Origin: Planctomycetota bacterium
GTDB taxonomy: Bacteria > Planctomycetota > JACOTG01 > JAJDCM01
DNA: 64,000 nt
Direction: 5' to 3'
NCBI GenBank assembly: GCA_029260825.1
Contig: JAJDCM010000382.1
Location: forward strand, 1,221-65,220
The notes below the pieces were generated by a model, which saw nothing but the letters and a program-made list of their open reading frames with translations, searched no databases and was not told the origin of the DNA. Numbering within the stretch: the first letter of the stretch is position 1; the number at the start of each line of letters is the position of its first letter. The translations under genes were made by a program, and so were the position numbers. Below are positions 535 through 26,800 of this stretch, one piece after another.

Positions 535-1317
535 TCAGAGCCGGTGGCGAATCGCCCACAGATCAGGGAACACCGGGTGAAACAACGACTTTTTGAGGAA
601 TTTGACCCCCAAGGTTCCGGCAGTTCCTTGCTTGCTTCCGATGGTACGCTCCACCAGCTTGACGTGGCGGTAGCGCCATTCCTGAAGCCCTTCGTCCACG
701 TCCGTCATGGCCTCGATGAGGTAGGTCATTTCCGGAACGTCACGATAGAGCTGAAGAACACAGTCTTGAATCGTGGTATTCGGGACCGTCGGAAGAGTGA
801 TGTCCTTTTCCCGAAGTTCGGCCGGTATGGGAGCACCTCGTTTTTCCAGAAGGTCGTAGAAATGATCGACCACCGATTTTTCTGCCAATCGTTTCTCGAC
901 TTTCGCGTAGCCCGGCGTGCCACTCTGAAGCAGACGCAGGGTGTCCGGTCGCTTGTAGCCAAGAACACACTCGATCTCTCGAAACTGCGCAGACTGAAGA
1001 CCGGAGGCCGTGTCCAAGCGCACCCGAAAACTCGTGAAGTGCATCGGCGTCATTGTCTCCAGGATGTCGACCTGAGAGACAAGTGTCTTCAGGACCATGC
1101 GGACTCTCTTCCACGTGGCAATCGAGCCGAAGAGATCATTGTCAGAGAAGTCGGTCTTGATCTTGTCGATCTCATGAAGAAGCAATTTGAACCACACTTC
1201 ATAGGCCTGATGGATGACGATGAACAGCATTTCATCGTGTTCCGGGGGATCGGATTGTGCTTCCTGCAGGCCAAGGAGTGTCTCAAGCTTCAAGTAGTCG
1301 GGGTAGGTAAGAGTCAT
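535..1317 (-). CDS. kynA: Tryptophan 2,3-dioxygenase
   Basis: 260-aa ORF with the TDO-family N-terminus (YPDYLKLETLLGLQ...IHQAYEVWFKLLLHE). It is 9 nt downstream of kynU on the same strand. Confidence 0.85.
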   Translation of the reverse strand: MTLTYPDYLKLETLLGLQEAQSDPPEHDEMLFIVIHQAYEVWFKLLLHEIDKIKTDFSDNDLFGSIATWKRVRMVLKTLVSQVDILETMTPMHFTSFRVRLDTASGLQSAQFREIECVLGYKRPDTLRLLQSGTPGYAKVEKRLAEKSVVDHFYDLLEKRGAPIPAELREKDITLPTVPNTTIQDCVLQLYRDVPEMTYLIEAMTDVDEGLQEWRYRHVKLVERTIGSKQGTAGTLGVKFLKKSLFHPVFPDLWAIRHRL

Positions 1318-1326
1318 TATTTGCTC

Positions 1327-2616
1327 TCAGGAAATTCGGTGAGAAAGAGCCATCGCGAACTCCCAGACATCCTGGAAAGTATTGTACAGAGGGACGGGAG
1401 CGGCTCGAATGACGTTCGGGGGTCGAAAATCACAAGTGATTCCCGCCTGGCCAAGCGCGGCAAGACGCATTTTTGGATCGTCGTTCACAAGAAGAGAAAG
1501 CTGACATCCACGTTCGCTCGGTTGATCCGGAGAGACAATCGAAACCACGCCGTCTCCGAGTTCCTTCAGGAGAAACTCAAGATATCCGGTCAACAGTTCG
1601 GACTTTCTTCGCAAGGCCTCCATCCCGACCTCATCAAAAATTCGAAGAGAGGAAAGGAGTGGGGCCATGGAAAAGATCGAAGGATTCGAGATCTGCCAGC
1701 CATCGGCTCCAGCGCGGGGTATGAAATCGGCGACCTCATCCATCTGAAATCGGGTCTCCGGATCGTTTCCCCACCATCCTGCAAATCGAGGAAGATCGAG
1801 ATTGTGGCCATGACGTTCATGAACGAAACAACCGCCCACCGCTCCCGGTCCGGAATTCAGATATTTGTAATTACACCAGGCGGCGAAGTCGACGTTCCAG
1901 CGATGAAGTTCGAGAGGAACGTTGCCTGCCGTATGAGCCAGGTCCCAGCCGACCGTGCATCCTTTTGCCTGAGCAAGCTGGGTGATGCGCTCGATGTCAA
2001 AAAGCTGGCCGGTCAGGTATTGAACTCCGCTCAGAAGGACGAGCGCAATCCGCTCTCCTTCGTTCTCAAGGATCTCTTCAATGGTGGCAAGAGGAATGGT
2101 TGATTGACCGCTCGGCGGCCGGGCAATCAGCAAGGCCGCTTTGGGGTCAAGACCATGGTGAATCAACTGAGTCGACGTCGCATAGCCGTCGGACGGGAAG
2201 GCACGGTCTTCGATCAGGATCTTGTATCGTTTCTTGGTGGGGCGGAAGAAGGACACCATCATCAGGTGCAAGTTCACCGTCAGGCTGTTCATCATGACCA
2301 CTTCACCGGGAAGGCCGCCCACGAGACGAGCCCCCATCTCGCGGAAACATTCATGATAAGAGAACCAATCGGGGTCGGCTTCGAAATGCCCCTCAACTCC
2401 CAGCTTTGCCCAGTCGGAAAGAAGCCGCTCCATCTGGGGGCCGACGGCCTTGGGTTGAAGGCCCAGTGAGTTCCCGCAGAGATAGACGGACGGGGTGCCT
2501 CCTTCCCGCTGTGGGATATGGAATTGATCCCGCATCGAAGCGAGCGGGTCGTTCGCGTCGAGCTGCTCGGCGCAGCTTCGGTTGACGTCGAATGGTGAGG
2601 TCGATGTTGAGCCCAT
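1327..2616 (-). CDS. kynU: Kynureninase (PLP-dependent)
   Basis: 429-aa ORF with kynureninase-family conservation (VYLCGNSLGLQPK, YKYLNSGPGAVGG). It lies 5 nt downstream of the ACMSD gene. Confidence 0.85.
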   Translation of the reverse strand: MGSTSTSPFDVNRSCAEQLDANDPLASMRDQFHIPQREGGTPSVYLCGNSLGLQPKAVGPQMERLLSDWAKLGVEGHFEADPDWFSYHECFREMGARLVGGLPGEVVMMNSLTVNLHLMMVSFFRPTKKRYKILIEDRAFPSDGYATSTQLIHHGLDPKAALLIARPPSGQSTIPLATIEEILENEGERIALVLLSGVQYLTGQLFDIERITQLAQAKGCTVGWDLAHTAGNVPLELHRWNVDFAAWCNYKYLNSGPGAVGGCFVHERHGHNLDLPRFAGWWGNDPETRFQMDEVADFIPRAGADGWQISNPSIFSMAPLLSSLRIFDEVGMEALRRKSELLTGYLEFLLKELGDGVVSIVSPDQPSERGCQLSLLVNDDPKMRLAALGQAGITCDFRPPNVIRAAPVPLYNTFQDVWEFAMALSHRIS

Positions 2617-2621
2617 CTCGG

Positions 2622-3644
2622 TCAGTTTGACTCCCCGAAGACGTCTTTTTCTTTCAGTCCCAAGAACTCCAGAGGAGTCTTCACCAGCATCTGGTGCTTT
2701 ACTTCGTCCCCGATGTCGGAAAGAGAATCAACCAGCTTTCCAGGTTCCGCTTCCCCCAAAGGAAAAGGATAGTCGGATCCAAGGGCGATGCGCTCGGGCC
2801 CGATGAGGTCGATGAGCCCTCGAAGAGCAAATGGATCGTAAACCGCAGTATCCACGTAGAATTTACCGATGTAACTCCTGGGACTCTTGTCGTTGTCAAC
2901 GGCACACAAGTCGGGGCGAGCGTTGAAGCCGTGTTCGATTCGTCCAATTGTCCAGGGGAATGAGCCCCCGCCATGAACGAACAGAAGCTTGAGTTTCGGC
3001 AGGCGTTCGAGAACACCACCAAAGATCATCGAGCTCAGGGCCAGGGCGGTTTCCGTGGGCATTCCCACCAGCCAGGGAAGCCAGTACTTCTTCATGCGAT
3101 CCTTGGCCAACATGTCCCAGGGATGAACCATGATGGCAGCGCCAAGCTCTTCGGCACGGGCAAAGACAGGGAAGAGCTCTTCCGCATCAAGGTTCCAATC
3201 GTTGACGTGGCTTCCGATCTGGACGCCGCACATGTTGAGCTCGCTCATACATCGTTCGAGCTCTTTGATGGCAAGGTCCGGAGCCTGCATGGGAAGGGTC
3301 GCGAGTCCTCCAAAACGTCGGGGACGATCCTTGACGATCTCGGCGATGTGATCGTTGAGAAGCCTCGAGAGATCGTGACAATCATCGTGCTTGGCCCAGT
3401 AGCCAAACATCACCGGCACCGTGGAGAGGACCTGGTACTGAACCCCGAGCTGATCACATTCTTCTTCTCGTTTCGCCGGGCTCCAGCAGTTCTCCTTGAT
3501 CTCACGAAAAAAGGTATCGTCCACCATCATTCGAGCGAATCCAGGTCGGTGGTGCTCGAGTCGGACAAATCCGCCGTAACCATACCGATCTCGAAGATCG
3601 GGCCAGGTTTCAGGCAGAATATGAGTGTGTAGATCGACCTTCAG
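2622..3644 (-). CDS. 2-amino-3-carboxymuconate-6-semialdehyde decarboxylase (amidohydrolase-2 family), probable CUG start
   Basis: The track ORF 2622..3530 aligns along its whole length to ACMSD (VRENCW, TLPMQAP, KYWLPWLVGMP, HGGG.FP.T.GRI.HGF). The in-frame sequence upstream of the first AUG encodes (L)KVDLHTHILPETWPDLRDRYGYGGFVRLEHH, which is the metal-binding HxH N-terminus of ACMSD. No AUG, GUG or UUG lies in frame back to the upstream TAG. A CTG at 3644-3642 sits 7 nt after a GGAGG Shine-Dalgarno. Confidence 0.75.
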   Translation of the reverse strand: MKVDLHTHILPETWPDLRDRYGYGGFVRLEHHRPGFARMMVDDTFFREIKENCWSPAKREEECDQLGVQYQVLSTVPVMFGYWAKHDDCHDLSRLLNDHIAEIVKDRPRRFGGLATLPMQAPDLAIKELERCMSELNMCGVQIGSHVNDWNLDAEELFPVFARAEELGAAIMVHPWDMLAKDRMKKYWLPWLVGMPTETALALSSMIFGGVLERLPKLKLLFVHGGGSFPWTIGRIEHGFNARPDLCAVDNDKSPRSYIGKFYVDTAVYDPFALRGLIDLIGPERIALGSDYPFPLGEAEPGKLVDSLSDIGDEVKHQMLVKTPLEFLGLKEKDVFGESN

Positions 3645-6577: not shown

Positions 6578-6963
6578 GCCTGGATCTCCTTTGCCCAGCG
6601 ATCGATTTCTTTTGTGAGTAGCTTCTTCACCTCTGGAAACGGAAGCCCGGAAAGTCGCGCTTCGGTAAGAATCTCCCGAAGCTTTGCCTGGATCCGGCCT
6701 CGAGTCGATTCCCCCTCCCCTGAGGGGCCATCCGTCGCCACCGTCACGCCCTTTCCACGTCCCACCTGAAGTAGCCCCTCGTCCCGAAGCTTCCGGTAGG
6801 CTCGGGCCACGGTGTTGAAGTGGATTCCAAGATCCCCGGCGAGCTGCCGGACCGAAGGGAGAGAATCTCCCGGGCCGAGCTCTCCTCGAGCAATGGTCTC
6901 CCGAATGCCCCGTCGGATTTGCTCCTCAAGGGGGATCGAACTTTCAAGGTCAACGGTGAGCAT
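6574..6963 (-). CDS. GntR-family (YtrA-like short) transcriptional regulator
   Basis: 129 aa with a winged HTH (LPSVRQLAGDLGIHFNTVARAYRKLRDEGLL) and a short C-terminal effector region. Confidence 0.8.
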   Translation of the reverse strand: MLTVDLESSIPLEEQIRRGIRETIARGELGPGDSLPSVRQLAGDLGIHFNTVARAYRKLRDEGLLQVGRGKGVTVATDGPSGEGESTRGRIQAKLREILTEARLSGLPFPEVKKLLTKEIDRWAKEIQA

Positions 6964-7084
6964 GGTTACGCTGTATCATCTATTGGTACAGTACGTCAAG
7001 CAGCTTGGAAGGTTCAAAAATCGGGCCAAAATCGGCGGCGGGAGCGTATTGACGAATCCGGGGGAAAGAGAAAACAATAGACCC

Positions 7085-8983
7085 ATGGTGAATCCAGGCA
7101 TGACCGAGGCAGCACTTCATGTGCAAAAAGGACCGGCGCGACCCAGCCGGGTGCTCCTTCGTGAGGATCTCCTGTTAATCGGGCGATCCGAGGACTGCGC
7201 TCTCATCTTGCTGGATGATACCGCCTCCCGTCACCATGCCAGCGTCGAGCGGACCGAGGATGGCTTTCGTTTGAAAGACCTGGGATCTTCAAATGGAACC
7301 TTCGTGAACGGAGACATGAATCCAGATCGACTCCTCATCGAGGGGGATGAGATCCGGATCGGCTCGGTTCACCTTCAATTCAGCCTGAAGGCCGGGCGGA
7401 AAACGATCATCGTCGAGGAAAAAGAGGAGAGTCCGACAACTCTGAGGGTTGAAACCTCCATACCCGGCCCCACGTTTGATCCCACCGAGGGCGATGACGA
7501 TGACGGGCTTCTTCGACGACTGAAAACACTTTATCGGGTAAACACGGCTCTTTCCCGGTGCCTCGATACGAACGAACTCCTCCTCGAGGTCTTTCGGAGT
7601 CTGACGGAGGTCCTTCCGTTTGAGCGAGGCGCGGTCTGGTACAGCAAGGGGGGGCAAACAAGACCTTTGATCTACTACCAGCGAGAAGACGAAAATCATC
7701 GCCCGTTTCAGGTGAGCTCGACTCTTCTCCAGCGAGTGCTGGTGAGCAAGGAAGGCGTCCTCGTTCGGGATGTTCTCGAGGACGAAAAACTCCGAGATCG
7801 CCGGAGTGTTCTTCTGGGTAGTACGCTCTCCATCGCTGCAGTGCCTCTTCTGGTTGAGGGCAATTGCATGGGAGTTCTCTACATCGACTCAACCCTGGTC
7901 GATTCCTTTTCTCCCGAGGATCTCGAATTGCTCCTGGGCCTGGCATGTCCCACCGGGCTGGCGATCCGCAACGCGGAAACTTTCACCCGAAAAGACCAGG
8001 AAGCTCATCGACTTCGCCAGGAGCTTACGACTCACCACCGAGCCATCGGTGATTCTCCCGAATTCAAGGAGGCGCTTTCCCTCACCGAGAAGGTGGGGCC
8101 GACGGACACCACCGTCCTCCTGCTCGGAGAGACCGGAACAGGTAAGGAGATTCTTGCCCGGACCATCCACAATCTGAGCACCCGAAGAGAAGGGCCCTTT
8201 GTCCCGGTGAATTGTGCGGCGATTTCTCCCTCCCTCCTTGAAAGTGAACTCTTCGGTCACGTCAGTGGAGCATTCACCGGAGCTCATCGGGACGCTCCGG
8301 GTCAGTTCAGGCTGGCTGACGGCGGCACATTATTCCTGGATGAAGTCGGGGAAATGCCCCCCGAGCTCCAATCAAAGCTTCTTCGAGTTCTCGAGGAGCG
8401 CGAAGTTCGTCCGGTGGGCGCCGATCGCACCGTGGCGATCGACATCAGGATTCTTGCCGCCACGAACCGGGATCTCCAGGGCGACATCGAAACCGGTGGC
8501 TTCCGCGCCGACCTCTACTATCGCCTGGGTGTGATGCAGATCAACATTCCACCTCTTCGGGAGCGAACGGGAGACATCTTGCTTCTCGCTCGATCCTTCC
8601 TTGACGCATTGCGAGGCGGCCTGGGGAAGCATCCTTCTGGCTTCTCTTCGGAGGCAGCAGAGATCCTAGAGCGGTATCCTTGGCCGGGAAATGTGCGAGA
8701 GCTTCGCAATGTGGTGGAAAGAGCATCCGTTCTTGCCGCAGGAGAGCAGATCAAACCGAGAGATCTCCCCGATGATGTCCGTCGGAGCATCCAGGGCGCT
8801 GGGGGTGGGCGCTTCGATGACCCGGCCGGGGATGAACCCATCTTCTCTCTCAAGGAAGCGGAAAAGATCGCCATTGAGAGGGCCCTCCAGAAGACCGGGG
8901 GGAGAAAGGGGGAGGCTGCCAAACTCCTCGGTACTTCCTGGCCAACCCTGACGAAGAAGATCCGAGAATACGGGCTGGATTGA
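7085..8983 (+). CDS. Sigma-54-dependent transcriptional activator with N-terminal FHA and GAF domains (FHA-GAF-AAA+-Fis HTH)
   Basis: FHA region LIGRSEDCALILLDDTASRHHASVE...LGSSNGTFVNG. AAA+ region GETGTGKEILARTIHNLSTRREGPFVPVNCAAI...GAFTGA. C-terminal HTH KGEAAKLLGTSWPTLTKKIREYGL. Start chosen at ATG 7085 because the track ORF start at 6812 overlaps the divergent GntR gene. Confidence 0.85.
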   Translation: MVNPGMTEAALHVQKGPARPSRVLLREDLLLIGRSEDCALILLDDTASRHHASVERTEDGFRLKDLGSSNGTFVNGDMNPDRLLIEGDEIRIGSVHLQFSLKAGRKTIIVEEKEESPTTLRVETSIPGPTFDPTEGDDDDGLLRRLKTLYRVNTALSRCLDTNELLLEVFRSLTEVLPFERGAVWYSKGGQTRPLIYYQREDENHRPFQVSSTLLQRVLVSKEGVLVRDVLEDEKLRDRRSVLLGSTLSIAAVPLLVEGNCMGVLYIDSTLVDSFSPEDLELLLGLACPTGLAIRNAETFTRKDQEAHRLRQELTTHHRAIGDSPEFKEALSLTEKVGPTDTTVLLLGETGTGKEILARTIHNLSTRREGPFVPVNCAAISPSLLESELFGHVSGAFTGAHRDAPGQFRLADGGTLFLDEVGEMPPELQSKLLRVLEEREVRPVGADRTVAIDIRILAATNRDLQGDIETGGFRADLYYRLGVMQINIPPLRERTGDILLLARSFLDALRGGLGKHPSGFSSEAAEILERYPWPGNVRELRNVVERASVLAAGEQIKPRDLPDDVRRSIQGAGGGRFDDPAGDEPIFSLKEAEKIAIERALQKTGGRKGEAAKLLGTSWPTLTKKIREYGLD

Positions 8984-9021
8984 AAGGTTCTTTCAATCCT
9001 CCATTGAAAGATCTTTTCAAT
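8979..9021 (+). repeat. Tandem AT-rich hairpins/palindromes ATTGAAAG-N3-CTTTCAAT (x2) immediately after the activator stop codon
   Basis: attgaaag gtt ctttcaat cctcc attgaaag atc ttttcaat. Each has an 8-bp stem and a 3-nt loop. They stand out as AT-rich in a GC-rich genome. Confidence 0.5.
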
Positions 9022-9186
9022 TCTTACCTTTCTGCCGGAGCTCTCGGGGCTCAACGGTTCTGGCGTTTGTTATTTTAAGCCTTTAATTTACAATGGCTTA
9101 GAGGCACTTTTGGGCCGTCCCGATATCGATGGCACGATTCGTGTTGTTCTTCCCGGTGACAGAGCCACCAACCAGAAGAGAGCCAG

Positions 9187-10239
9187 ATGAACGAAAACAA
9201 GAACCTACATGCTCGCGTGACCCGAAACGCGGAGGATACTGCCAGCTTCGACACGAGTTCCCTGGTGGGGCTTGAGCTTGGCGGCTATCGACTGGACGAG
9301 CCGATTGGACAGGGAGGCATGGGATCCGTTTTTAGAGCAACCCAGCTCTCCCTCGGCCGCTCGGTTGCGGTGAAAGTACTCGCCCCCGAGCTTTCGGGGC
9401 GCGATCAGATGGTGTCCCGATTCAAGCGAGAGATCAAAACACTCACAAGCCTTAGCCACCCCAACATCGTTGCTCTTCTCGACGGAGGATTCGACAGCGA
9501 CAAGGGGCTTTATTACTACGTGATGGAGTTGATCGACGGAGTGACGGTTCGAGACGTGATCGACGGGGGCGGTCTTGAACCGGCAAAAGCGTTGCTCATG
9601 GTTCCCAAGATCTGCGATGCCCTGGAATATGCCCACCAGATGGGAGTCGTTCACCGGGACGTGAAGCCAGCCAACATCCTGTTGGACCGGGAAGGTCGGG
9701 TCAAGATCGCAGACTTCGGTCTTTCTCGTCTGATCGAAGAAAAGGAAGATGAAGGCCGGATCACCCGGACTCAGCAGGTCATGGGCACCGTCGAGTACAT
9801 GGCCCCCGAACAGCGAGAGGGGGCCAAGCACATCGATCATCGGGCAGACATCTACTCTCTCGGGGTTGTTTTCTACGAGCTGCTCACCGGTGAGCTCCCG
9901 ATCGGTCGGTTTGATCCCCCGAGTAAAAAGGTGGAAGTGGACGTGCGGCTGGATGACGTTGTTTTGCGGGTTCTCGCCAAAGATCCCCAGCGGCGCTACC
10001 AACGTGCAAGCGAGGTGGCCGTCGACGTACGAAGTCTCGAGTCGGACAGCGCCGTCGCCAGTCCGGGAACCAGTGGATCTCATCAGGAGGAGGAAGACAT
10101 GGAACACGCAATCTCGACCCCGTCCCGAGTCTCAGGATGGGCGATCGCCAGCTTCGTCCTGGCTCTTTTGATCATCGTGCCGTTTGTGCTGGGGATGCTC
10201 GCACTGTTGTTCCTGGGAGCAACCGTTCAGAGCGGATAA
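9187..10239 (+). CDS. Hanks-type Ser/Thr protein kinase (active; C-terminal TM anchor)
   Basis: Glycine loop GQGGMGSVF, VAVK lysine, HRDVKPANILL catalytic loop, DFG, APE. C-terminal hydrophobic segment. Confidence 0.85.
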   Translation: MNENKNLHARVTRNAEDTASFDTSSLVGLELGGYRLDEPIGQGGMGSVFRATQLSLGRSVAVKVLAPELSGRDQMVSRFKREIKTLTSLSHPNIVALLDGGFDSDKGLYYYVMELIDGVTVRDVIDGGGLEPAKALLMVPKICDALEYAHQMGVVHRDVKPANILLDREGRVKIADFGLSRLIEEKEDEGRITRTQQVMGTVEYMAPEQREGAKHIDHRADIYSLGVVFYELLTGELPIGRFDPPSKKVEVDVRLDDVVLRVLAKDPQRRYQRASEVAVDVRSLESDSAVASPGTSGSHQEEEDMEHAISTPSRVSGWAIASFVLALLIIVPFVLGMLALLFLGATVQSG

Positions 10240-10303
10240 GGGCGCCGCTTCCGGTCCCATTGGAAGTGCTCATGAAGAAGAGAGAAGAAAGGAACATCGA
10301 TCC

Positions 10304-10669
10304 ATGCAGATAAGTGAACTGTTATTAGTCCTTGGAGTCCTTGCTTTCTGTACCATCCCACTTCTATCGATTATCTTTGGAATCGTTGGACTGGTCAAAA
10401 TTGGGAGGTCAGGTGGGCAACTCCGAGGAGCTGGACTAGCTTGGACAGGAATCATCATCGGTGTCATTTCTCTGCTTGCGGTCCCCGCCGTGGGAGGCCT
10501 TGCTCTGGTCTCTCGCCGGTCCCAGGCATCAGCCTGGGAAGCAGAGACCGCACTCAAGGAGGCTGTCCTCCAGGAAAGAAAGGACAGAAAGAAGCGAACC
10601 AGGGCCATCGAAATCGCCCCGGAAGACCTTGCTCCGACCCAAGAAACCACGGAGAAAGAGGGAGTTTAA
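10304..10669 (+). CDS. Small two-TM membrane protein (DUF4190-like)
   Basis: MQISELLLVLGVLAFCTIPLLSIIFGIVGLVKIG...GIIIGVISLLAVPAVGG. A purine-rich SD precedes ATG 10304. The track ORF start at 10184 overlaps the kinase 3' end. Confidence 0.55.
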   Translation: MQISELLLVLGVLAFCTIPLLSIIFGIVGLVKIGRSGGQLRGAGLAWTGIIIGVISLLAVPAVGGLALVSRRSQASAWEAETALKEAVLQERKDRKKRTRAIEIAPEDLAPTQETTEKEGV

Positions 10670-10680
10670 GGCCCCTCGAG

Positions 10681-12045
10681 ATTCTCCTTCTCCTGGCGAT
10701 TTGCTGCTTCCTCGTCACCCCCTCGATCTCGGCTCAAACGACTGTCGATCCCGATGAGGTTGTTCGGGCCCGGGTCGAACAGAGTGCTTGCTCGGGAATC
10801 GTGGTCGGCCTCGTCAGTCCCTCCGGGACCAAGATCATCTGCCAGGGAACACGGCTGCGATCTGGCCGAGCCAGAGTCGATGCAGACACGCTCTTTGAAC
10901 TGGGTGAGGTGAGCCAGGTCTTTACCGGGCTTCTCCTTGCCGAACTCGAACTCGAGAAAGAGATCTCCTTCAAAGATCCGATCTCTCTTTTCCTTCCCAA
11001 GGACTGGTCTCTACCTGGTGATGATCCGGACGCGATCACTCCGCTGAGTCTGATCACTCATACATCCGGTTTCCCCCGCCATGTGAGGATTCCCCGAAAA
11101 GGAGACGACCCGGAGAGAATTCGAGCTGCTCTTGGCTCCTGCACTTTGGACAAGGGAAGGAACCACCCGGTTGAATCGAACTTCGGGATCGGGCTCCTTG
11201 GCCACGCTCTGGAAACCCGGGCGAAGACATCCTTTGAGGACCTTCTCACTCAGCGGATTCTAAGACCCCTCAAAGCGCCTCACGCCTGTTTTGAGTTCGA
11301 CCCGAATCCCGAGGTAAATCAGGCTCGGGGGCATGATGCGGAGGGCTTTGGGATTGCTCGCGCCAAAGGCCCGGCTCTCCTTCCCGCATCCGATGGCCTC
11401 CGTGCTTCCGGGGCCGATCTTCTCCGCCTGCTGGAGTTCCTCCTCGCACCGGGAAAAGATTCAAAGCTTGAACCCATCGTCAGCCCGACTCTTACGAATC
11501 AAATCAAGAACTCCCCCGAATTGCCGGGTGAAGGAAGAGGGCTCGGGTGGATCCTCTTGACCGAAAAGGGAAGCAATCTTGCGGTTCAATCCGGAGCAAT
11601 CTACGGGTGCAGCTCCTTTGTCGGGTTAGATCTCAAGGCCAGAACCGGGGTCTTCGTTCTCTCGAATTCGATTCAAGATGTGTCGGATCTTGGCCTTCAT
11701 TTCCTGGACCCCAAAAGACCACTTGCCAGGGCCCGGGTCAGAAAAGCAACCACCCTGGAAAAGGGAGCCCTCAAGGCCAAAGAAGGAATTTTTAGACTTT
11801 CCGACGGACGGCGCATCAATCTTCGCGCGATAGCAGGCGGCCTGAGAATGCAGTCAGACGACGGAAAAGTGCTGGACCTCATTCCTGAGACCGAGGATGT
11901 TTTCTTCGGTCTCACGGACGACATCGAGATCAACTTTCTTCCTGCCGAGCCCGGTTCCCCTCCATCTCTCTCGTTCAGGAATCGGGCAAGAACTCAGAAA
12001 GGGACGGGGCAGGGGAGGCAAGAGAAGACTCCGAAGAAAGACTAG
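10681..12045 (+). CDS. Secreted beta-lactamase/PBP-fold protein with degenerate catalytic motifs (probable pseudoenzyme); start codon uncertain
   Basis: Signal peptide ILLLLAICCFLVTPSISA-QT. Strong collinearity with class C beta-lactamases (LFELGEVSQVFTGLLLAELE versus AmpC LFELGSVSKTFTG). SxxK reads EVSQ, YxN reads ESN, KTG reads QSG. No ATG, GTG or TTG in frame near the signal peptide; ATT at 10681 or CTG at 10693 are the candidate starts, 12-24 nt after the upstream gene's stop. Confidence 0.65.
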   Translation: MLLLLAICCFLVTPSISAQTTVDPDEVVRARVEQSACSGIVVGLVSPSGTKIICQGTRLRSGRARVDADTLFELGEVSQVFTGLLLAELELEKEISFKDPISLFLPKDWSLPGDDPDAITPLSLITHTSGFPRHVRIPRKGDDPERIRAALGSCTLDKGRNHPVESNFGIGLLGHALETRAKTSFEDLLTQRILRPLKAPHACFEFDPNPEVNQARGHDAEGFGIARAKGPALLPASDGLRASGADLLRLLEFLLAPGKDSKLEPIVSPTLTNQIKNSPELPGEGRGLGWILLTEKGSNLAVQSGAIYGCSSFVGLDLKARTGVFVLSNSIQDVSDLGLHFLDPKRPLARARVRKATTLEKGALKAKEGIFRLSDGRRINLRAIAGGLRMQSDDGKVLDLIPETEDVFFGLTDDIEINFLPAEPGSPPSLSFRNRARTQKGTGQGRQEKTPKKD

Positions 12046-12318
12046 ACGGATTTCTGCTCAAGCTTACAACCATCCAGCTTCGATCAGGATATAGAGATTG
12101 AGAGTGAACCCAAGGCCCAAAGAAGGGGACCTGACCCAGGTCAAGGCCGGGTCGATTTCGGTCTCGTAGGATGGCTTCGGCTGCAGTTCGTAGGGTTGAA
12201 GCTTCGGATCCAGGCGGTATCCTAGGAGTTGCGCTCTTTCGGTTCGCCCCTTCGAATCTGGAAGGCGTCTCTCCCGTTCCCTCACAGTTTTCCGCGTCAA
12301 AAAATAAAGAGAAGAGCC

Positions 12319-14166
12319 ATGACAACGACCCAGGAGCTGAAATCCCGTCCCGAGATGGAGAAGAAGGCAAGTGAGCTTGAGTCTCGTGAAGTTGCCGAAT
12401 CGGCTCGGGAAACGGAATGGAAGAGCCCTAGCTTCGTGAAGGAGTTGTATGGAGGTCGGATCCTCCTGGATCTCCTTCATCCGTACCCGGAAAAACCGGC
12501 CGCGGATATCGAAAAAGCCCGCCCGTTCATGGAAAAGCTGGACAAGATCCTGGCCAAGGTTGATGGGGACGCCATCGATCGCACCGGCGATCTTCCCGCT
12601 GATATCGTCCAGGAGTTGAAAGACATCGGGGCGTTCGGGATCAAGATCCCGGAAAAATATGGAGGCCTTGGTCTTTCTCAGCGCTCGTACGTGGAGGCCA
12701 TCGCCAAAGTGACCAGCGTCGATGGATCCCTCACTGCTCTTCTTTCCGCTCATCAGAGCATCGGTCTTCCTCAACCTCTGAAGATGTTTGGGACCGAGGC
12801 GCAAAAGGACAAATGGTTCCCGCGGCTTGCCAAGGGGACGATTTCCGCCTTCGCACTTACCGAGCTCGAAGCAGGCTCTGACCCGGCCAACATGACGACT
12901 GCCGCTGTTTCCGACAACGGAGATGAATACGTCATCAACGGAAAGAAGCTCTGGTGCACAAACGGTGTCGTGGCCGACGTCCTCGTGGTGATGGCAAAGA
13001 CCGGAAAACGAATCTCCGCCTTCATCGTCGAGACAAAGACTCCCGGAGTGGAGCTTGTTCATCGGTGCCACTTCATGGGATTGAAGGGGATTCAAAATGC
13101 GGTGATCCACTTCAACGATGTTCGTGTTCCCAAAGAGAACCTGCTCTGGAAAGAAGGCTCGGGGCTGAAACTTGCCTTGATTACTTTGAACACCGGGCGA
13201 CTCACGCTGCCGGCAAGTTGTGCCGCAGGGACCCGAAGGCTGGTGCAAATTTGTCGTGAATGGTGCAAGGAGAGAGTTCAGTGGGGAGTCCCCATTGGAA
13301 AGCACGACGCCATCGCCCAGATGCTGGGGAACATGACCGCCAATGCTTTTGCCATGGAAACGGTTGCCGACATGGCTTCGGCCATGGCCGATCAAGGCGG
13401 ATATGACATTCGCCTGGAAGCGGCGATCGCCAAGCTCTTCAACTCGGAGGTTTCCTACAAGGCGTGTGATGACGCCTTGCAGATTCGCGGTGGACGAGGC
13501 TATGAGACCGCCGATTCATTGAAGGCTCGGGGCGAGAAACCCATCCCCATCGAGCGGTTTCTACGAGACATGCGGATCAACCGGATCTTCGAGGGATCCA
13601 CCGAGATCATGCATCTCTTCATTGCTAGAGAGATGCTGGACGGGCACCTCAAGGTCGCCGGAGATCTGGTGAATCCCAAGGCCACCGGGGGGCAGAAGTT
13701 CAAGGCCCTTCTACGTGCAGCCGGCTTTTACTCCTGGTGGTATCCAACCCGGTGGGTTGGCTGGTCGTTCGCACCGAAGTACTCGGAATTTGGCGAACTT
13801 GCGGGTCACCTGCGCTTCGTTTCAAGATCCTCTCGAAAACTTGCCAGGACGATTTTCCACTCCATGGTCCGCTTTGGCCCCAAGCTCGAGAAACGACAAA
13901 AGGTTCTCGCAAGGCTCGTGGATATCGGAGCCGAGCTTGTAGCCATGGCCATGACTTGTGTCCGGGCTCACGCGATGGTCAAGAAGGACCCGGGCAACCA
14001 AGGACCTTCCGAACTCGCCGACGTCTTTTGCTCTCAAGCCCGCCTCCGGGTCAAAGAGCTCTTCCGCAACGTCTCCAGCAATGCGGACGTGAAGACCTAC
14101 AAGGCGGCCCAAAACGTTATTTCCGGTGATCACGCCTGGATGGAGGAAGGCCTCCCCAAGGTCTAA
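12319..14166 (+). CDS. Acyl-CoA dehydrogenase (long form with C-terminal extension)
   Basis: ACAD motifs (FALTELEAGSDPANMTT, YVINGKKLWCTNG, IFEGSTEIM). RBS aagagaagag precedes ATG 12319. The 443-aa antisense ORF 12064..13395 is a shadow. Confidence 0.85.
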   Translation: MTTTQELKSRPEMEKKASELESREVAESARETEWKSPSFVKELYGGRILLDLLHPYPEKPAADIEKARPFMEKLDKILAKVDGDAIDRTGDLPADIVQELKDIGAFGIKIPEKYGGLGLSQRSYVEAIAKVTSVDGSLTALLSAHQSIGLPQPLKMFGTEAQKDKWFPRLAKGTISAFALTELEAGSDPANMTTAAVSDNGDEYVINGKKLWCTNGVVADVLVVMAKTGKRISAFIVETKTPGVELVHRCHFMGLKGIQNAVIHFNDVRVPKENLLWKEGSGLKLALITLNTGRLTLPASCAAGTRRLVQICREWCKERVQWGVPIGKHDAIAQMLGNMTANAFAMETVADMASAMADQGGYDIRLEAAIAKLFNSEVSYKACDDALQIRGGRGYETADSLKARGEKPIPIERFLRDMRINRIFEGSTEIMHLFIAREMLDGHLKVAGDLVNPKATGGQKFKALLRAAGFYSWWYPTRWVGWSFAPKYSEFGELAGHLRFVSRSSRKLARTIFHSMVRFGPKLEKRQKVLARLVDIGAELVAMAMTCVRAHAMVKKDPGNQGPSELADVFCSQARLRVKELFRNVSSNADVKTYKAAQNVISGDHAWMEEGLPKV

Positions 14167-14191: not shown

Positions 14192-15733
14192 CTACTCGCC
14201 CTTTGACCAGGTAGCCAGGACCAACAGGGTGGCCCAGGAAACTTCGCCAGGATAGCTGACAGCTTTCGTCACTCGAAGATGACGGCGAAGTTGTCGTTGC
14301 CTCGCCGAGACGATTGCTTTGGCGAAGTAGAGCGCCGGGGCGAGGGAGTAGGCGGCTTCGCCACCCAGACGATCCTCTCGAGTCCTGGCCCTCATGGCGG
14401 TCCAAAGTTTCTTGTTGTCCGGATGAAAGGTCCCCGAGGTACTTTTCAGATTCAATCCGGTCATCCCGGAATGTCCTCCGTCATAGCCAACCTCAAGCGC
14501 AAATGTTGCGATCTCCCGGGTGCGTTCCTTGATCAGAGGCGCCAGCCCGGGGGAGTGAGTCTCGATGACCAGCATTTCGTAGGGCCAGAGACAACCCAGA
14601 TGAAACCAGGTGACGTACCGTCCCTTCGGGTTCCGGGAAGCCAGGTAGGGCCATGTGATGAGGTCGCGGGTCTTGACCCACTCTCCTGGATCGGTCTGCC
14701 AGCCTCTCTTTGACGTATCACCGGCAACTTTTCGCCAGGAGCAAAACTGGAGCAAGCGGCCCTCGACAACGGCCAGGAAATCCTGGGTGGTTTCGAACGT
14801 AAATGGAACCTCTTTAAGCATCTCGGGGGTCAGATATCCCTGTTCAACTAGGGCCTCAAAGACCTGACTGAATCGAAAGGCTGCCCCCGCTGCTCGAACG
14901 AAAGGTCGAACGCCTCCCATTCCGATCATCCATTTCTCGTTCTCTGGATCATCCTGGAAAAATGGACTGTTCTGGAGACGATGAAAAGCGACTTGAAATC
15001 CGTTCAGCAGGGCAGCCCGGGTTTCACCGTCTCGTGCCGCGATTGCGGTCAGACCGATGGCCGGGTGCCTCTGAAGGTGTCCGTGGTCCTGCTTGTCCGG
15101 AATCTGGACCAGCCAGTTTGCGAGGTTGACGGCGTTGTCCCGTGCCTTCTCATCCCCGTAGAGTAGCCAGCCTAGAAGGTTATTCGTGATCCGGTCCGAA
15201 TCGTTGTTGCCCCGTCCTCCCCGGCGAGGGTCGGGGATGCTCTTTTCGTCCCCGGTTCGAACGTATCGCTCGAGCGGGTCTTTTACCTGGAGGGCGGCCA
15301 TGTAGCGCCGTCCCGCCGGGACGAGAGCCTTCTCGTAGAGTTTGCGAGCGATGGCCCTTTCCTTGGCGGTTCCTAGCGGAATGGGGAAGAGTTTTCCAAC
15401 TCGATCTTTCTCCACAACCGGATCGACTGGCTTCTGCTTCTCGTTCTTCTTTGTTCCGGGGTCAACCGTCGCTTTCTTGGAGCCGGAGATTGGTTGTGTT
15501 CCTGAGGAGGAGTCTTTCCCTGCCTTTGCCGGAGACGCTACCTCTCCGCCCAGCTGTCCTTTCTGGTGAGTTTCCGACGGACGCTTCTGGCTCTCCTCCT
15601 GGGAAATGGCGTCAGGAGCACCCCCAAATAAGAGGGAAGCAAGGAACAGCACGATGGGCCCCCGAAGCTTGAGAATCAGGGACCATGTCGGGGAATCCGT
15701 TTGGGCGTACATGGAGCACCTATTCTCCATCAT
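14192..15733 (-). CDS. Hypothetical secreted protein (signal peptide, no recognisable domain)
   Basis: Long ORF with signal peptide IVLFLASLLFGGAPDAISQ. It sits immediately downstream of the GDPD-FGGY gene, so it is probably co-transcribed. Confidence 0.5.
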   Translation of the reverse strand: MMENRCSMYAQTDSPTWSLILKLRGPIVLFLASLLFGGAPDAISQEESQKRPSETHQKGQLGGEVASPAKAGKDSSSGTQPISGSKKATVDPGTKKNEKQKPVDPVVEKDRVGKLFPIPLGTAKERAIARKLYEKALVPAGRRYMAALQVKDPLERYVRTGDEKSIPDPRRGGRGNNDSDRITNNLLGWLLYGDEKARDNAVNLANWLVQIPDKQDHGHLQRHPAIGLTAIAARDGETRAALLNGFQVAFHRLQNSPFFQDDPENEKWMIGMGGVRPFVRAAGAAFRFSQVFEALVEQGYLTPEMLKEVPFTFETTQDFLAVVEGRLLQFCSWRKVAGDTSKRGWQTDPGEWVKTRDLITWPYLASRNPKGRYVTWFHLGCLWPYEMLVIETHSPGLAPLIKERTREIATFALEVGYDGGHSGMTGLNLKSTSGTFHPDNKKLWTAMRARTREDRLGGEAAYSLAPALYFAKAIVSARQRQLRRHLRVTKAVSYPGEVSWATLLVLATWSKGE

Positions 15734-15756
15734 TGAGCGTGTCCGTCCAAGCGGAT

Positions 15757-17928
15757 TCAATCGAGCACCTTCCTGCGCCACTCCCGGTGGAGACGCTCGG
15801 CCTGCCGGGGGCGTGTGCGGGGGTGGATGACGGTAAGAGGTTCCCTCTCGCGAAGCCGTGCTTGCCCGCCCAGAGCCAGAAGAGCCGCGCCGATGATGGT
15901 GCTTTCCTGAACCGGGCTGACAAGAAGTGACGCGCAGAGGGTGTCCGCAAGGATCTGAAGAAGATGAGGATTCCTGGAAAGTCCGCCTCCCACGGTCAGA
16001 CGAGATCGATCGGGAACGACTCGTCCAAGCCGGATCAAATTCTCCCGCACCAGGTATGCGATCGACTCCAGGAGGCCCCGAGCAAGCCCGGGAGCGTTCC
16101 GACGTCCTCGGACAACAAACCGACGCCTCGGATCCCAGAAGGGAGATCCAAGGCCTTCCTGAGCGGGAAGGACGTAGGTCCCTGCCTCTCCTCGAGCGGC
16201 GAGCTCCCCAAGACTCAACTGGTCCGCATCGTTCTGGGCGAGGAAGCCCTGGATGGAAGGTACAACCCGGTGAACCGTGCCCTCGATCAGATACTCCGCC
16301 TTACCACCCTGGCTCCAAGCAATACTGGAAAGAAGGCCGGGCACGCGATGGAGCACCGAACCCGTGTTGGCAAGTAAGAATCCACCGGTCCCCAGATTCA
16401 GGCAGGCGGGACCGGTCTGGACTTCTCCAGAACCGAATGCGGCGAGCGCAGCCTGCTGGTCTCCGATCTGGCAACGGGTGACAAGCTTTCGGCCCCCCAG
16501 CATGATCTCGGCCGGGGATCCGCAAGTATCTGCAATCTCCGGGAGGATTGACGCCGGGATGCCAAAAAGGCTCAGAAGTTCCGGATCCCAGTCTCGTCGA
16601 CGCAGGTTCATGAGAAGCATGCGGGCGGCAAGGGTTGGGTCCGTGCGGAAGATGCGCCCCTCGGACCATCGCCACAAAAGATACGTGGGAAGGGGTCCAC
16701 AGAGAAGTCGATCCGAGTGAACTCGCGTCCGACGAAGCTTCCAGGCAATCTTGCTGGCTGAATAACTGGGAGACAGGAGAAGACCGGTTCGATCTCGGAC
16801 TAGATGGGCTGAGTCCTTGCGGGCGGCAACCAGACGACGTCCTCGAGTGCACCGCCAGCTCGGAGCATCCCCGATCGGCTTTCCTGTTTCCCGATCCCAC
16901 AGAACAAAAGTCGATCTCTGGGACGCGAGTGCCACGGTGCGTACGTTTTCTTCCTCGAGCAGGAGTCGAGAGGCCTCTCGGGTTACGAGACGCTCCACGG
17001 TTTCGGCATCGAGGCCAAGCTCACCCTTGGGGCCGCGAAGCGTGGGGAGCGGTTTCCTCACCAGCTTGAGCGGAACTCCCTGATGGGAGACAAGCGCAAT
17101 TTTTACCTCCGTTGACCCCAGATCGATGGACAGCACAGGGGCCCTTGCCCGGCTCGGACGAGGGGGAGACGAACGACGTTGATCGCCGACCAGCTCCACC
17201 CAACGGATCATGCGGCCCGGGTCATCGGTGATGACTCCATCCACTCCCACTCGATGCAGTCGTGTCAGCTCCTGTCGAGTGTTCACCGTATAGGGCAAGA
17301 TCTTGCGTCCTTGTCGATGCTGATTCTTGACCCAGCTCTTGGTCACGTGAGAGCGATTCGGAACGACGAAGGAAGCCTGAATCTCAGTGGCCAATCGATT
17401 GAGAGAAAAAGAAGGACGGGAAGGATAGACGATTCCGAGCTGGAGATCAGGAGCGTTTCTTGCAGCCTCTTGAACCATCGCCGGTTCCGCCGACGTCAAC
17501 AACGCCCGGTTGAAACCACCGGTTCTCCTCAGCGCCAGAAGGACCTCCCGGACAAGAGGCTCGGCGTGGGACGGGGGACCCTTGAGTTCCACATGTACGT
17601 CGACATCCGGCCGCAGAATGGCGAGAGCTTCATCAAGAGACAACATCCTTGTTCGACGCCAGGTCTGGTTCTTGCGAAAGTCCGGTCGGACTGAGAGCTC
17701 GCAGCATTCGGCAAGGGTCATCTCCCGGATCGAGCCGTTGTGGCCACAGACCCGCCGAGTGGTTGCATCATGGTGGACCAGAGCTCGGTCGTCCGCGGTC
17801 AGCTGAACATCGAATTCGACCGCATTCACCCCTGCGGCAAGGGCTAACGAGAACGAAGGAGCGGTGTTCTCCGGAGCGCGTGCGGCCGCACCGCGGTGGC
17901 CGACGACGATCAATCCGCCCTTGGTCAT
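15757..17928 (-). CDS. Fusion protein: glycerophosphodiester phosphodiesterase (GDPD) N-domain + FGGY-family glycerol-kinase-like C-domain
   Basis: N-terminus VVGHRGAAARAPENT...EFDVQLTADDRALVHHD (GDPD). C-terminus SIDLGSTEVKIALV...WDRETGKPI...LLLSPSYSASKIAWKL...GGGLSRNPHLLQILAD...IIGAALLA (FGGY/GlpK). Confidence 0.75.
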   Translation of the reverse strand: MTKGGLIVVGHRGAAARAPENTAPSFSLALAAGVNAVEFDVQLTADDRALVHHDATTRRVCGHNGSIREMTLAECCELSVRPDFRKNQTWRRTRMLSLDEALAILRPDVDVHVELKGPPSHAEPLVREVLLALRRTGGFNRALLTSAEPAMVQEAARNAPDLQLGIVYPSRPSFSLNRLATEIQASFVVPNRSHVTKSWVKNQHRQGRKILPYTVNTRQELTRLHRVGVDGVITDDPGRMIRWVELVGDQRRSSPPRPSRARAPVLSIDLGSTEVKIALVSHQGVPLKLVRKPLPTLRGPKGELGLDAETVERLVTREASRLLLEEENVRTVALASQRSTFVLWDRETGKPIGDAPSWRCTRGRRLVAARKDSAHLVRDRTGLLLSPSYSASKIAWKLRRTRVHSDRLLCGPLPTYLLWRWSEGRIFRTDPTLAARMLLMNLRRRDWDPELLSLFGIPASILPEIADTCGSPAEIMLGGRKLVTRCQIGDQQAALAAFGSGEVQTGPACLNLGTGGFLLANTGSVLHRVPGLLSSIAWSQGGKAEYLIEGTVHRVVPSIQGFLAQNDADQLSLGELAARGEAGTYVLPAQEGLGSPFWDPRRRFVVRGRRNAPGLARGLLESIAYLVRENLIRLGRVVPDRSRLTVGGGLSRNPHLLQILADTLCASLLVSPVQESTIIGAALLALGGQARLREREPLTVIHPRTRPRQAERLHREWRRKVLD

Positions 17929-26170: not shown

Positions 26171-26800
26171 ATGAAAGAACTGAGTGATAAGAAGGGGCGT
26201 GGATCGAGTCTTTCACAAATGGCTCTTTTCGGCCTTGTGGTATTGATCGGCCTCAGTGGCTGTCGATCCACGCCGAAAGGACGCATCAAGGAGGAATCGG
26301 AAGGGGACCTCGTCGGCGCAAGAAGCGCCGGAGCTCCTACGTTCAACAAACTCGTCAGCGGGAGCACGGAAAAGCTCCTGGATCGAGCCTCTGCAAAATA
26401 CGCCAGCCCTCGCCTGAGTGTTGCCGTGATGGAAATCGAAAACCGGAGCAACGAAGCGATCGGTGACTTCCTTGCTCAGCTGGATGATGTCATCGAGACG
26501 GTCTTTGAGAACAGTGGCTCCTACGATTCCGTGAGTCGCCGATACATCGAAGCGGTTCTTCGGGAAACCCGTCTGAAACCCGACCAGCTGGTCATTCCCA
26601 AGTATGCCCGACAGTTCGCCAGTGTCCTCGAACGACAGGATGTACCTGTCACTCACCTCCTATTTCCGCGAATCACCAGCGGAACGACCCGTGGCGATGA
26701 GGTGACCCAGAAGGACTACCTCATGTCCCTTGAGCTTCTGGACATCAGCTCGGGAAGGTTTGACAAGGAAACTCAGAGGGTGCGGAAAGAATACAATTGA
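26171..26800 (+). CDS. Lipoprotein, LpoB/CsgG-N-terminal-like fold (putative PBP-activator-like)
   Basis: Lipobox LIGLSGC. The pattern SVAVMEIENRSNE...SGSYDSVSR...DYLMSLELLDISSG resembles LpoB (VLLVDSVNNRTN...YVLYS...MQLMLVQTGEI). Similarity is recalled from memory, not a search. Confidence 0.45.
   Translation: MKELSDKKGRGSSLSQMALFGLVVLIGLSGCRSTPKGRIKEESEGDLVGARSAGAPTFNKLVSGSTEKLLDRASAKYASPRLSVAVMEIENRSNEAIGDFLAQLDDVIETVFENSGSYDSVSRRYIEAVLRETRLKPDQLVIPKYARQFASVLERQDVPVTHLLFPRITSGTTRGDEVTQKDYLMSLELLDISSGRFDKETQRVRKEYN

Follow-up and report, generated by a model that had tools for sequence, protein, structure and literature searches.

The locus raises the question of how to read a long, intact reading frame that encodes a recognizable fold and an export signal, and that lacks both catalytic residues and a start codon. 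In the window, the 64,000-nucleotide stretch of planctomycete DNA analysed here, this frame occupies positions 10666..12045 of the forward strand (459 codons plus stop; all features named below lie on the same strand unless stated otherwise) and was delimited by Pfam, homolog alignment, AlphaFold and coding score. A preliminary description of this DNA had claimed that its product is collinear with β-lactamases and PBPs, and this holds in both profile alignment and structure prediction. Pfam profile PF00144 scored 123.5 bits, above its cut-off of 27 bits (E = 1e-35), residues 32-337 spanning profile positions 2-310 of 329; the best PDB sequence matches were class C β-lactamases; and the ORF aligned collinearly with 119 homologs of PF00144+PF11954 architecture. 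The AlphaFold model (pLDDT 88, pTM 0.84) has the central-sheet α/β fold of PBPs and class C enzymes. Foldseek matched it to PBP-type two-domain proteins and to AmpC enzymes, with an rmsd of about 3 Å and a target-normalised TM of 0.75-0.79 against AmpC-type structures.

The predicted layout comprises a signal peptide, a β-lactamase/transpeptidase-fold domain (approximately residues 29-350), a C-terminal β-barrel (approximately 370-448) and a basic tail. Pfam gave no PF11954 (DUF3471) match at E ≤ 0.01. The C-terminal region is nonetheless collinear with the DUF3471 region of the homologs, conserves G374, E408, F413 and F424, and is modelled as a β-barrel with pLDDT above 90. No publication on DUF3471 turned up in a literature search. 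The product scored far below the curated cut-offs of the NCBIfam models for class C β-lactamase (NF033085, 79.6 bits vs. 415) and AmpH DD-carboxypeptidase/endopeptidase (NF007943, 60.8 bits vs. 266), and the active homolog P0002 likewise fell under the latter cut-off with 171.6 bits. Against class C enzymes it scored 48-71 bits, compared to 81-100 bits for the active homolog. The product is an AmpH/class-C-type β-lactamase-fold protein and not a β-lactamase. Its lower class C and AmpH scores relative to the active homolog, together with identities of at most 37%, suggest that it has evolved fast.

All three motifs reported as substituted, EVSQ, ESN and QSG, were found in homolog alignments, which add that the Tyr of YxN is deleted and that the third motif of this family is H-N-G. 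With residues counted from codon 10666, E81-V-S-Q84 (10906..10917) replaces S-x-x-K, E170-S-N (11173..11181) marks the second motif without its catalytic Tyr, and Q308-S-G (11587..11595) stands where PF00144+PF11954 homologs have H-N-G rather than the K-T-G of AmpC. The residues concerned are present in 97-100% of the homologs (Ser in 118/119, Lys and Tyr each in 119/119, His in 116/119). Three independent alignments were concordant, and no alternative alignment recovered the Ser-Lys dyad. Although none of the four catalytic residues survives, the protein retains 79% of those family positions at which homolog conservation reaches 98% or more, and the structure model is confident. The alignments and the model thus support the earlier proposal of a catalytically inactive protein that retains its fold, and it also carries a predicted export signal. 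Judged by motif residues, AmpH-like proteins with a DUF3471 barrel have lost catalysis repeatedly, with Ser and/or Lys also missing from 4 of the 148 closest family representatives (about 3%). One of these, P0306, lacks both Ser and Lys; it was rejected as a relative of the present pseudoenzyme on account of only 30% identity and a retained Tyr, which point to an independent loss.

A signal peptide is predicted for 10666..10734, (L)RPLEILLLLAICCFLVTPSISA, with cleavage before Q (10735), from hydropathy, the -3/-1 pattern and alignment to homologs. It reads LRPLEILLLLAICCFLVTPSISA up to that Q and shows, by inspection and hydropathy, an n-h-c pattern: a single Arg, a hydrophobic core whose Kyte-Doolittle average reaches 3.4, and S-I-S-A before the Q, which puts small residues at -3 and -1. 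This N-terminus aligns with homolog signal peptides ending in AQ, and AlphaFold models it as a helix over residues 3-16, with pLDDT below 50 at residues 20-23. The encoded signal peptide is therefore as predicted in the preliminary description; its position is not. It had been placed 12-24 nt past the stop of the DUF4190 gene, whereas it opens with TTA 10666-10668, a codon that shares nucleotides with the DUF4190 stop (TAA 10667-10669; junction GTTTAAGG).

Codon 10666 is the position aligned to the homolog Met, and a TTA is found where a start is expected. The dead AmpH-like frame is open from 10318, back to a stop at 10315. The claim that no AUG, GUG or UUG lies in frame upstream is correct for 10444 to 10800, which holds no ATG, GTG or TTG, and fails at TTG 10441..10443, the only upstream in-frame canonical start. 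We judged this TTG to be unused, as it would impose a 229-nt overlap with the DUF4190 gene, with a negative coding score and an R/G/P-rich translation in that stretch. P0001, the publicly annotated gene model (414 aa), begins at GTG 10801..10803. This codon was rejected as the native start because it would drop two elements that align with homologs, conserved helix 1 and the signal peptide, and by the same alignments the public model is truncated. Downstream of the DUF4190 stop, the nearest near-cognate codon is ATT 10681..10683, a candidate weak reinitiation site. Since TAAGG lies 9 nt upstream of this ATT, reinitiation at AUU or CUG is possible. A simpler account, in which the natural N-terminus is at codon 10666, five codons upstream of ATT 10681, fits the sequence better.

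The missing start is best read as the mutated TTG of an ancestral TTGA start/stop overlap, converted to TTAA by a single G-to-A change. The orthologous DUF4190 gene of the relative L005 ends in GTTTGA (a single genome with 66% kinase identity), and in L009 and L010 a TTGA or ATGA overlap directly follows the DUF4190 gene. NTGA overlaps also occur in the window, at 15760 (reverse strand), 26797, 40836 and 57147, and in the relatives L002, L009 and L010; TGA is the commonest stop codon. The junction, including the A, is identical in the Logan assembly of SRR15505514. Assembly error was rejected on this identity, which is only partly independent evidence if the two assemblies share reads, as they may. 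With the start changed in this way, the gene would either have fallen silent only recently or be translated weakly through reinitiation at ATT 10681, which is our best reading of its present state.

The reading frame itself appears well kept. The ORF holds 459 codons with no stop or frameshift, its GC1/2/3 values are native-like, and the coding score is positive in this frame only. In a simulation it took a median of 27 changes for the first stop to arise, and all four catalytic residues were replaced before the first stop in 1 of 20,000 runs (5e-5); the simulation was substitution-only, used a hypothetical ancestor and ignored indels, and its outcome is compatible with recent death after a long functional pseudoenzyme stage. 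This outcome argues that selection preserved the intact ORF beyond the loss of catalysis, and therefore for a pseudoenzyme and against junk that died long ago.

The gene lies between the DUF4190 gene and an acyl-CoA dehydrogenase gene, downstream of a conserved module. Its neighbours assign the source genome to Planctomycetota. The first gene of this module encodes an FHA-GAF-sigma54 activator (6812..8983; Pfam and relatives), the true start of which is probably internal to these coordinates because the proteins of relatives have 610-633 aa. It is followed by a membrane-anchored Ser/Thr kinase of 350 aa with a single C-terminal TM segment and no ectodomain (9187..10239), and by the gene for a small DUF4190 membrane protein of 121 aa (10304..10669; Pfam and orthologs), the putative upstream partner in translational coupling. 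DUF4190 orthologs adjoin the kinase in all five related planctomycete lineages, which keep the whole module without any β-lactamase-like gene. In the relatives L002 and L005, gene order is conserved on either side of the site, from which the dead AmpH-like gene is missing. No homolog of it was found at the 89 other kinase loci. The window contains no paralog, and Rfam, promoter and terminator scans of 8800-12600 gave nothing relevant. A word-indexed search of 5.8 billion proteins gave no relative above 37% identity, and an exhaustive HMMER search of 1.84 billion cluster representatives likewise gave nothing above that level. JGI metagenome scans, run both with the protein and with the junction DNA in both TTRA alleles, gave no relative above 37% identity. 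By these comparisons the gene is a one-off at this locus, present only in this lineage.

Taken as a whole, the explanation that we prefer, and to which we would give an even chance, is that the gene encodes an exported, non-catalytic AmpH-type descendant, with a selected frame and a start lost by the change from TTGA to TTAA. The ancestor would have been an AmpH-type DD-peptidase with a β-lactamase fold and a C-terminal DUF3471-type β-barrel, the gene for which would have been inserted between the DUF4190 and acyl-CoA dehydrogenase genes in this planctomycete lineage. Rapid evolution would have followed, with the reading frame maintained by selection and the product binding a ligand instead of catalysing a reaction. 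Its ligand is a guess; because of the AmpH-type ancestry, a peptidoglycan-type peptide would be the most likely one. Translation would formerly have been coupled to the DUF4190 gene through the 4-nt overlap, TTG serving as start and TGA as stop, until one G-to-A change preserved the upstream stop and destroyed the downstream start. With its start destroyed, the protein would now not be made, or be made at a few percent. The gene would thus be either a very young pseudogene or the source of a few percent of the normal product through near-cognate reinitiation, for example at ATT 10681.

A plain pseudogene, in which an AmpH-like gene has had no function and has decayed ever since catalysis was lost, and the missing start is one further lesion, is an unlikely but serious alternative. 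It would account for the lack of a start codon, the loss of every catalytic residue, the long branch and the singleton status of the gene, and Ser and/or Lys losses do recur in the family. Nevertheless, it sits poorly with 459 codons free of stops and frameshifts, a native-like codon structure, a confident structure model with core residues retained, and the rarity in the neutral simulation of a four-residue loss before the first stop. One could also imagine a repurposed enzyme whose new catalytic centre, for instance of glycosidase type, consists of the carboxylates Glu81 and Glu170 in the old active site along with Gln84 and Gln308. No fewer than two nucleotide substitutions separate Ser from Glu, and the replacements in the pocket are polar rather than random. 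However, Glu170 is old, with an equivalent just ahead of the Tyr in 105 of the 119 homologs, the model is weakest just before it (pLDDT 64 for residues 161-170), and there is no precedent, which makes a new catalytic centre highly improbable. Hardly credible at all is a longer protein, whether started at TTG 10441 or made as a DUF4190-β-lactamase fusion by -1 frameshifting or through an uncorrected sequencing indel. The frame is indeed open from 10318, the β-lactamase frame is -1 relative to the DUF4190 frame, and the DUF4190 proteins of relatives carry long and varied C-terminal extensions. Yet across 10441-10650 the coding score speaks for the DUF4190 frame, being negative for the other one, the DUF4190 C-terminus (EKEGV before the stop) matches that of L005 (EKKGV), the two assemblies are identical, and the region encodes what is predicted to be a normal cleavable signal peptide. 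A frameshift fusion in particular was rejected: there is no X-XXY-YYZ slippery heptamer in 10304-10669 and no homopolymer longer than 4, and the RNA structure is ordinary (fold z-score -0.16).

The remaining alternatives take the gene to be functional in its present form. It was suggested that the protein could be a periplasmic sensor of muropeptides or β-lactam-like ligands that works with the kinase of the same operon, its expression kept low on purpose through termination-reinitiation at AUU or CUG. In its favour, the gene is on the same strand as its neighbours, 65 nt and 0 nt from them, nothing resembling a promoter or terminator separates them, the kinase lacks an ectodomain, TAAGG precedes ATT 10681, and there is a precedent in Pseudomonas aeruginosa MipB, a protein with no SXXK that adjoins ParRS and has been proposed as a co-sensor (PMC10936184). 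Phylogenetic profiling of the gene with the kinase was negative, with no co-occurrence in relatives or in the 89 other kinase loci, and the tie to the kinase is not supported because five related genomes hold the module without the gene. The protein and metagenome searches brought up no ortholog that would speak for such a role. Moreover, a start at ATT or CTG would cost the n-region its only positive charge or shorten the hydrophobic core, and AUU and CUG both initiate at 0.02-3% of AUG in E. coli (bioRxiv 10.1101/063800). We therefore consider a kinase-linked sensor of this kind to be distinctly unlikely. The most ambitious version, which we regard as very improbable, is that the gene works as it stands: after the UAA, reinitiation at AUU 10681 or UUA 10666 would yield a scant periplasmic non-catalytic receptor, a lineage-specific ectodomain of the kinase-DUF4190 module that feeds the FHA-sigma54 activator.

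Whatever its present expression, annotation of the protein as a serine hydrolase or β-lactamase is unwarranted. The junction illustrates a hazard of 4-nt overlaps, in which a swap of the upstream stop from TGA to TAA silently deletes the downstream start. The gene opens no long-standing question, and inactive proteins of the β-lactamase fold, such as MipB, are already known.

The closest known systems are the AmpH-type low-molecular-weight PBPs, or 'CubicO group peptidases' with DUF3471, which are collinear with the protein over its full length, including signal peptide, fold and barrel. Proteins of this PF00144+PF11954 type were the top matches in every search, at 30-37% identity. In contrast to them, the dead AmpH-like protein has all catalytic residues replaced, an 8-residue deletion after HTSG(L/F)PR, and no start codon. 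Among solved structures, Pab87 (2qmi), esterase IS11 (7spn), the Lip3 DL-peptidase (9sn1) and the SurE cyclase (6ksu), which combine the PBP fold with a lipocalin-like C-terminal domain, were the best full-length matches (Foldseek E 1e-25 to 1e-21, TM 0.6-0.68), although at only 17-21% sequence identity. To our knowledge, all four are active serine enzymes. Class C β-lactamases (AmpC, CMY, ADC and HaBLA, 3wrz) superpose on the N-terminal domain at 2.7-3.3 Å over about 340 residues; the present protein differs from them in lacking the equivalents of Ser64, Lys67, Tyr150 and Lys315 and in having an extra C-terminal domain.

For the start codon, the comparison is with E. coli infC and pcnB, which are translated from AUU by design, the AUU being conserved and regulatory (10.1101/063800). 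As in those genes, a non-canonical start would be possible in principle; unlike in them, the natural N-terminus here lies upstream of the ATT. For the protein, a known precedent is MipB (PA1797) of P. aeruginosa, an envelope lipoprotein with a class-C-like β-lactamase fold, no SXXK, degenerate YXN and KTG motifs and two additional C-terminal eight-stranded β-barrels, which is encoded beside a signalling system, has MipA as a partner and shows conserved synteny with parRS (PMC10936184). Compared by description, both proteins have three degenerate motifs and envelope targeting (predicted for ours), whereas the planctomycete protein has a type I signal peptide, a single barrel and no conserved synteny with the kinase. 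MipB shows that non-catalytic members of the β-lactamase fold can act in envelope sensing (PMC10936184), and if the protein described here is made, it would be a planctomycete addition to the small set of non-catalytic β-lactamase-fold envelope proteins that includes MipB.

Upstream of its TAG at 12043-12045, the frame stays open as far as a stop at 10315. Its 459-residue product, read from codon 10666, matches Pfam PF00144 at 123.5 bits (cut-off 27). Within the PDB, class C beta-lactamases match its sequence best (E-values down to 5e-19). Among 5.8 billion proteins searched, the nearest relatives are 30-37% identical, have the architecture PF00144+PF11954 (DUF3471) and carry the source names "serine hydrolase", "CubicO group peptidase" and "D-Ala-D-Ala carboxypeptidase/endopeptidase"; AmpH is their closest NCBIfam family. 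The protein itself is neither a class C beta-lactamase nor an AmpH equivalog, because it scores below the curated cut-offs. An AlphaFold model built with 120 aligned sequences reached pLDDT 88 and pTM 0.84. Foldseek placed it with two groups: two-domain proteins of PBP type with a C-terminal beta-barrel (Pab87 2qmi, IS11 7spn, Lip3 9sn1, SurE 6ksu), and AmpC-type enzymes, which match the N-terminal domain.

Three independent alignments agreed on the catalytic motifs: two by MAFFT, with 13 and with 119 homologs, and one by HMMER against class C enzymes of the PDB. Motif 1 (SxxK) has become E81-V-S-Q84. Motif 2 has lost its Tyr by deletion, leaving E170-S-N; 105 of 119 homologs carry this Glu just before their Tyr. 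Motif 3 is Q308-S-G where the family has H-N-G, and the family His aligns with Lys315 of AmpC. Ser is found in 118 of the 119 homologs, Lys and Tyr in all, and His in 116. The motif substitutions named in the preliminary description were thus borne out by all three alignments, with the nuance that motif 3 of this family is HNG and not KTG. Further family-invariant residues are changed in conserved segments (e.g., W233A, G243D and T312I), several adjoining the motifs in sequence, and eight residues are deleted after HTSGFPR. The protein nevertheless keeps 79% of the columns conserved at 98% or more in homologs, and 65% of those at 90% or more. Together with the predicted fold, this supports the earlier view of a catalytically dead protein that would still fold.

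GC content at codon positions 1, 2 and 3 (0.63, 0.46 and 0.61) falls in the range of the 34 other genes of the window, and so does codon usage, which scores +0.22 in frame and -0.36 in the two alternative frames. We simulated substitutions starting from a hypothetical ancestor in which S, K, Y and H were put back into the gene. Median distances were 27 substitutions (0.02 per site) to the first stop codon and about one substitution per site to the replacement of all four catalytic residues; all four were lost before the first stop in only 1 of 20,000 runs. The estimate is conservative since indels were ignored. This simulation argues for continued selection on the reading frame after the loss of catalysis.

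The position of the start codon is less straightforward. The only in-frame canonical starts near the 5' end are TTG 10441 and GTG 10801, with no ATG, GTG or TTG in frame from 10444 to 10800. The earlier statement that no canonical start lies upstream therefore holds for that interval but passes over an implausible in-frame TTG at 10441. We rejected this TTG as the start because the coding signal moves from the DUF4190 frame to the beta-lactamase-like frame only at about 10650. The N-terminus, LRPLEILLLLAICCFLVTPSISA followed by QTT, resembles a Sec signal peptide. Signal peptides of homologs align with it, their Met falling at most one column from the Leu of TTA 10666, and a start at GTG 10801 would cut off both this peptide and the conserved first helix. 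GTG 10801 is the start of the deposited model P0001 (10801-12045, 414 residues, without signal peptide or helix 1). Automatic annotation would probably label this product a serine hydrolase or beta-lactamase despite the absence of all catalytic residues.

TTA 10666-10668 overlaps the DUF4190 stop TAA 10667-10669 (GGA GTT TAA), so the signal-peptide region does not begin 12-24 nt after that stop, as had been described, but overlaps it. An independent Logan assembly is identical to the junction sequence, and no slippery heptamer, homopolymer of more than four bases or unusual RNA structure was found there. A TTGA overlap, with TTG as start and TGA as stop, would become TTAA by one transition. 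This is the simplest history of the missing start, and comparison of junctions supports it indirectly. In L005, the closest relative whose DUF4190 C-terminus is comparable (...EKKGV* vs ...EKEGV*), the DUF4190 gene ends in GTT TGA. TGA is the commonest stop in the window, and four-nucleotide start/stop overlaps are frequent in the lineage. Every one in the window, at 15757-15760 (-), 26797-26800, 40836-40839 and 57147-57150, is a TTGA overlap, so TTG seems to serve commonly as a start in coupled genes. The junction orthologous to the 15760 (-) overlap is ATGA in the related locus L002 (11896-11899), and an ATGA overlap opens the gene that follows the first DUF4190 gene in L009 and L010 (L009 2472-2475). 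Reinitiation at a non-canonical AUU or CUG, as proposed earlier, may occur at ATT 10681, with TAAGG lying 9 nt before it. Initiation from AUU and CUG reaches 0.02-3% of that from AUG in E. coli (bioRxiv 10.1101/063800). A start at ATT 10681 would drop the sole positive charge of the signal peptide, and non-canonical initiation is less economical than the one-base loss of a TTGA-coupled start.

The source organism is an uncultured member of the Planctomycetota. The window runs from kynurenine-pathway genes through a sulfatase, a 301-residue ORF without Pfam match (relatives carry a GntR regulator at about its position), the FHA-GAF-sigma54 activator, the membrane-anchored Ser/Thr kinase and DUF4190 to an acyl-CoA dehydrogenase, a 520-residue hypothetical, GDPD-FGGY and kinase-TPR genes. 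This order is kept in L002 and L005 (kinase 65-66% identical) without the beta-lactamase-like gene. Activator, kinase and DUF4190 are likewise kept in three further relatives (L006/L007, L008 and L009/L010), and the gene is again absent. DUF4190 lies beside every orthologous kinase in 90 fetched loci (931 kb), in which tblastn found the beta-lactamase-like gene only in L001, the Logan contig from the same genome. This makes the gene an addition specific to the lineage, placed at the operon's 3' end, and not a partner conserved together with the kinase. With no promoter-like or terminator-like site between the genes, co-transcription is plausible. The idea of a kinase-linked periplasmic sensor fails the phylogenetic profiling proposed with it, the module being conserved in relatives that lack the gene.

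This conserved planctomycete module (6812-10669; also in L002, L005, L006, L008 and L009) combines an FHA-GAF-sigma54 enhancer-binding protein with a Ser/Thr kinase, which has one C-terminal TM segment and lacks an ectodomain. Its third component is DUF4190, present as one or two small membrane proteins, some of them with long, varied C-terminal extensions. The FHA domain suggests phospho-Thr signalling as an input to sigma54 transcription, and DUF4190 may be the membrane partner of the kinase. Two tiny hydrophobic ORFs between kinase and DUF4190, in L006 (8050-8442; 48 and 34 residues) and L010 (1426-1681; 31 and 36 residues), may be further small membrane peptides of the module. The activator ORF is listed with 723 residues from GTG 6812 (region 6812-7100); judging from orthologs of 610-633 residues, its real start is probably internal, around codons 90-110.

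Around the module, the kynurenine-pathway cluster (535-3530, -) comprises tryptophan 2,3-dioxygenase, kynureninase and an Amidohydro_2 protein, the latter two syntenic in L002 and L005. A 273-nt non-coding gap (12046-12318), with a short inverted repeat at 12128-12142, separates the beta-lactamase-like stop from ATG 12319, the true acyl-CoA dehydrogenase start by alignment with L005 and L002; the TTG 12229 of the ORF list is misleading. The conserved hypothetical at 14192-15760 (-), of about 520 residues, has an N-terminal hydrophobic segment, no Pfam or NCBIfam match and a 526-residue L002 ortholog in the same position. At 15757-17928 (-), a glycerophosphodiester phosphodiesterase (GDPD) domain is fused to an FGGY carbohydrate kinase (723 residues; conserved in L002 with 756). 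The fusion may link the release of glycerol-3-phosphate or glycerol to phosphorylation.

The beta-lactamase-like gene is a singleton. No relative above 37% identity came out of an exhaustive HMMER search covering 1.84 billion cluster representatives, and two JGI metagenome scans gave no match to it. Its branch is long: the protein scores 48-71 bits against class C enzymes and 61 bits against the AmpH model, vs 81-100 and 172 bits for the active homolog P0002. Ser and/or Lys were independently lost in 4 of the 148 best family representatives (P0247, P0306, P0314 and P0321), and dead variants therefore recur in the family; P0306, for example, reads GIGGVSEVFT. These sequences suggest that non-catalytic AmpH-like/DUF3471 proteins emerge recurrently.

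Non-catalytic envelope proteins of the beta-lactamase fold have already been described. MipB of Pseudomonas aeruginosa is without SXXK, has degenerate YXN and KTG motifs and C-terminal beta-barrels, is encoded beside parRS and was proposed to be a polymyxin co-sensor (PMC10936184). Unlike MipB, the planctomycete gene has no MipA-type partner in sight and its linkage to signalling genes is not conserved. Its product has a type I signal peptide and one barrel, whereas MipB has a lipobox and two barrels. By description, the likeness is one of kind, that of a non-catalytic envelope protein of the same fold.
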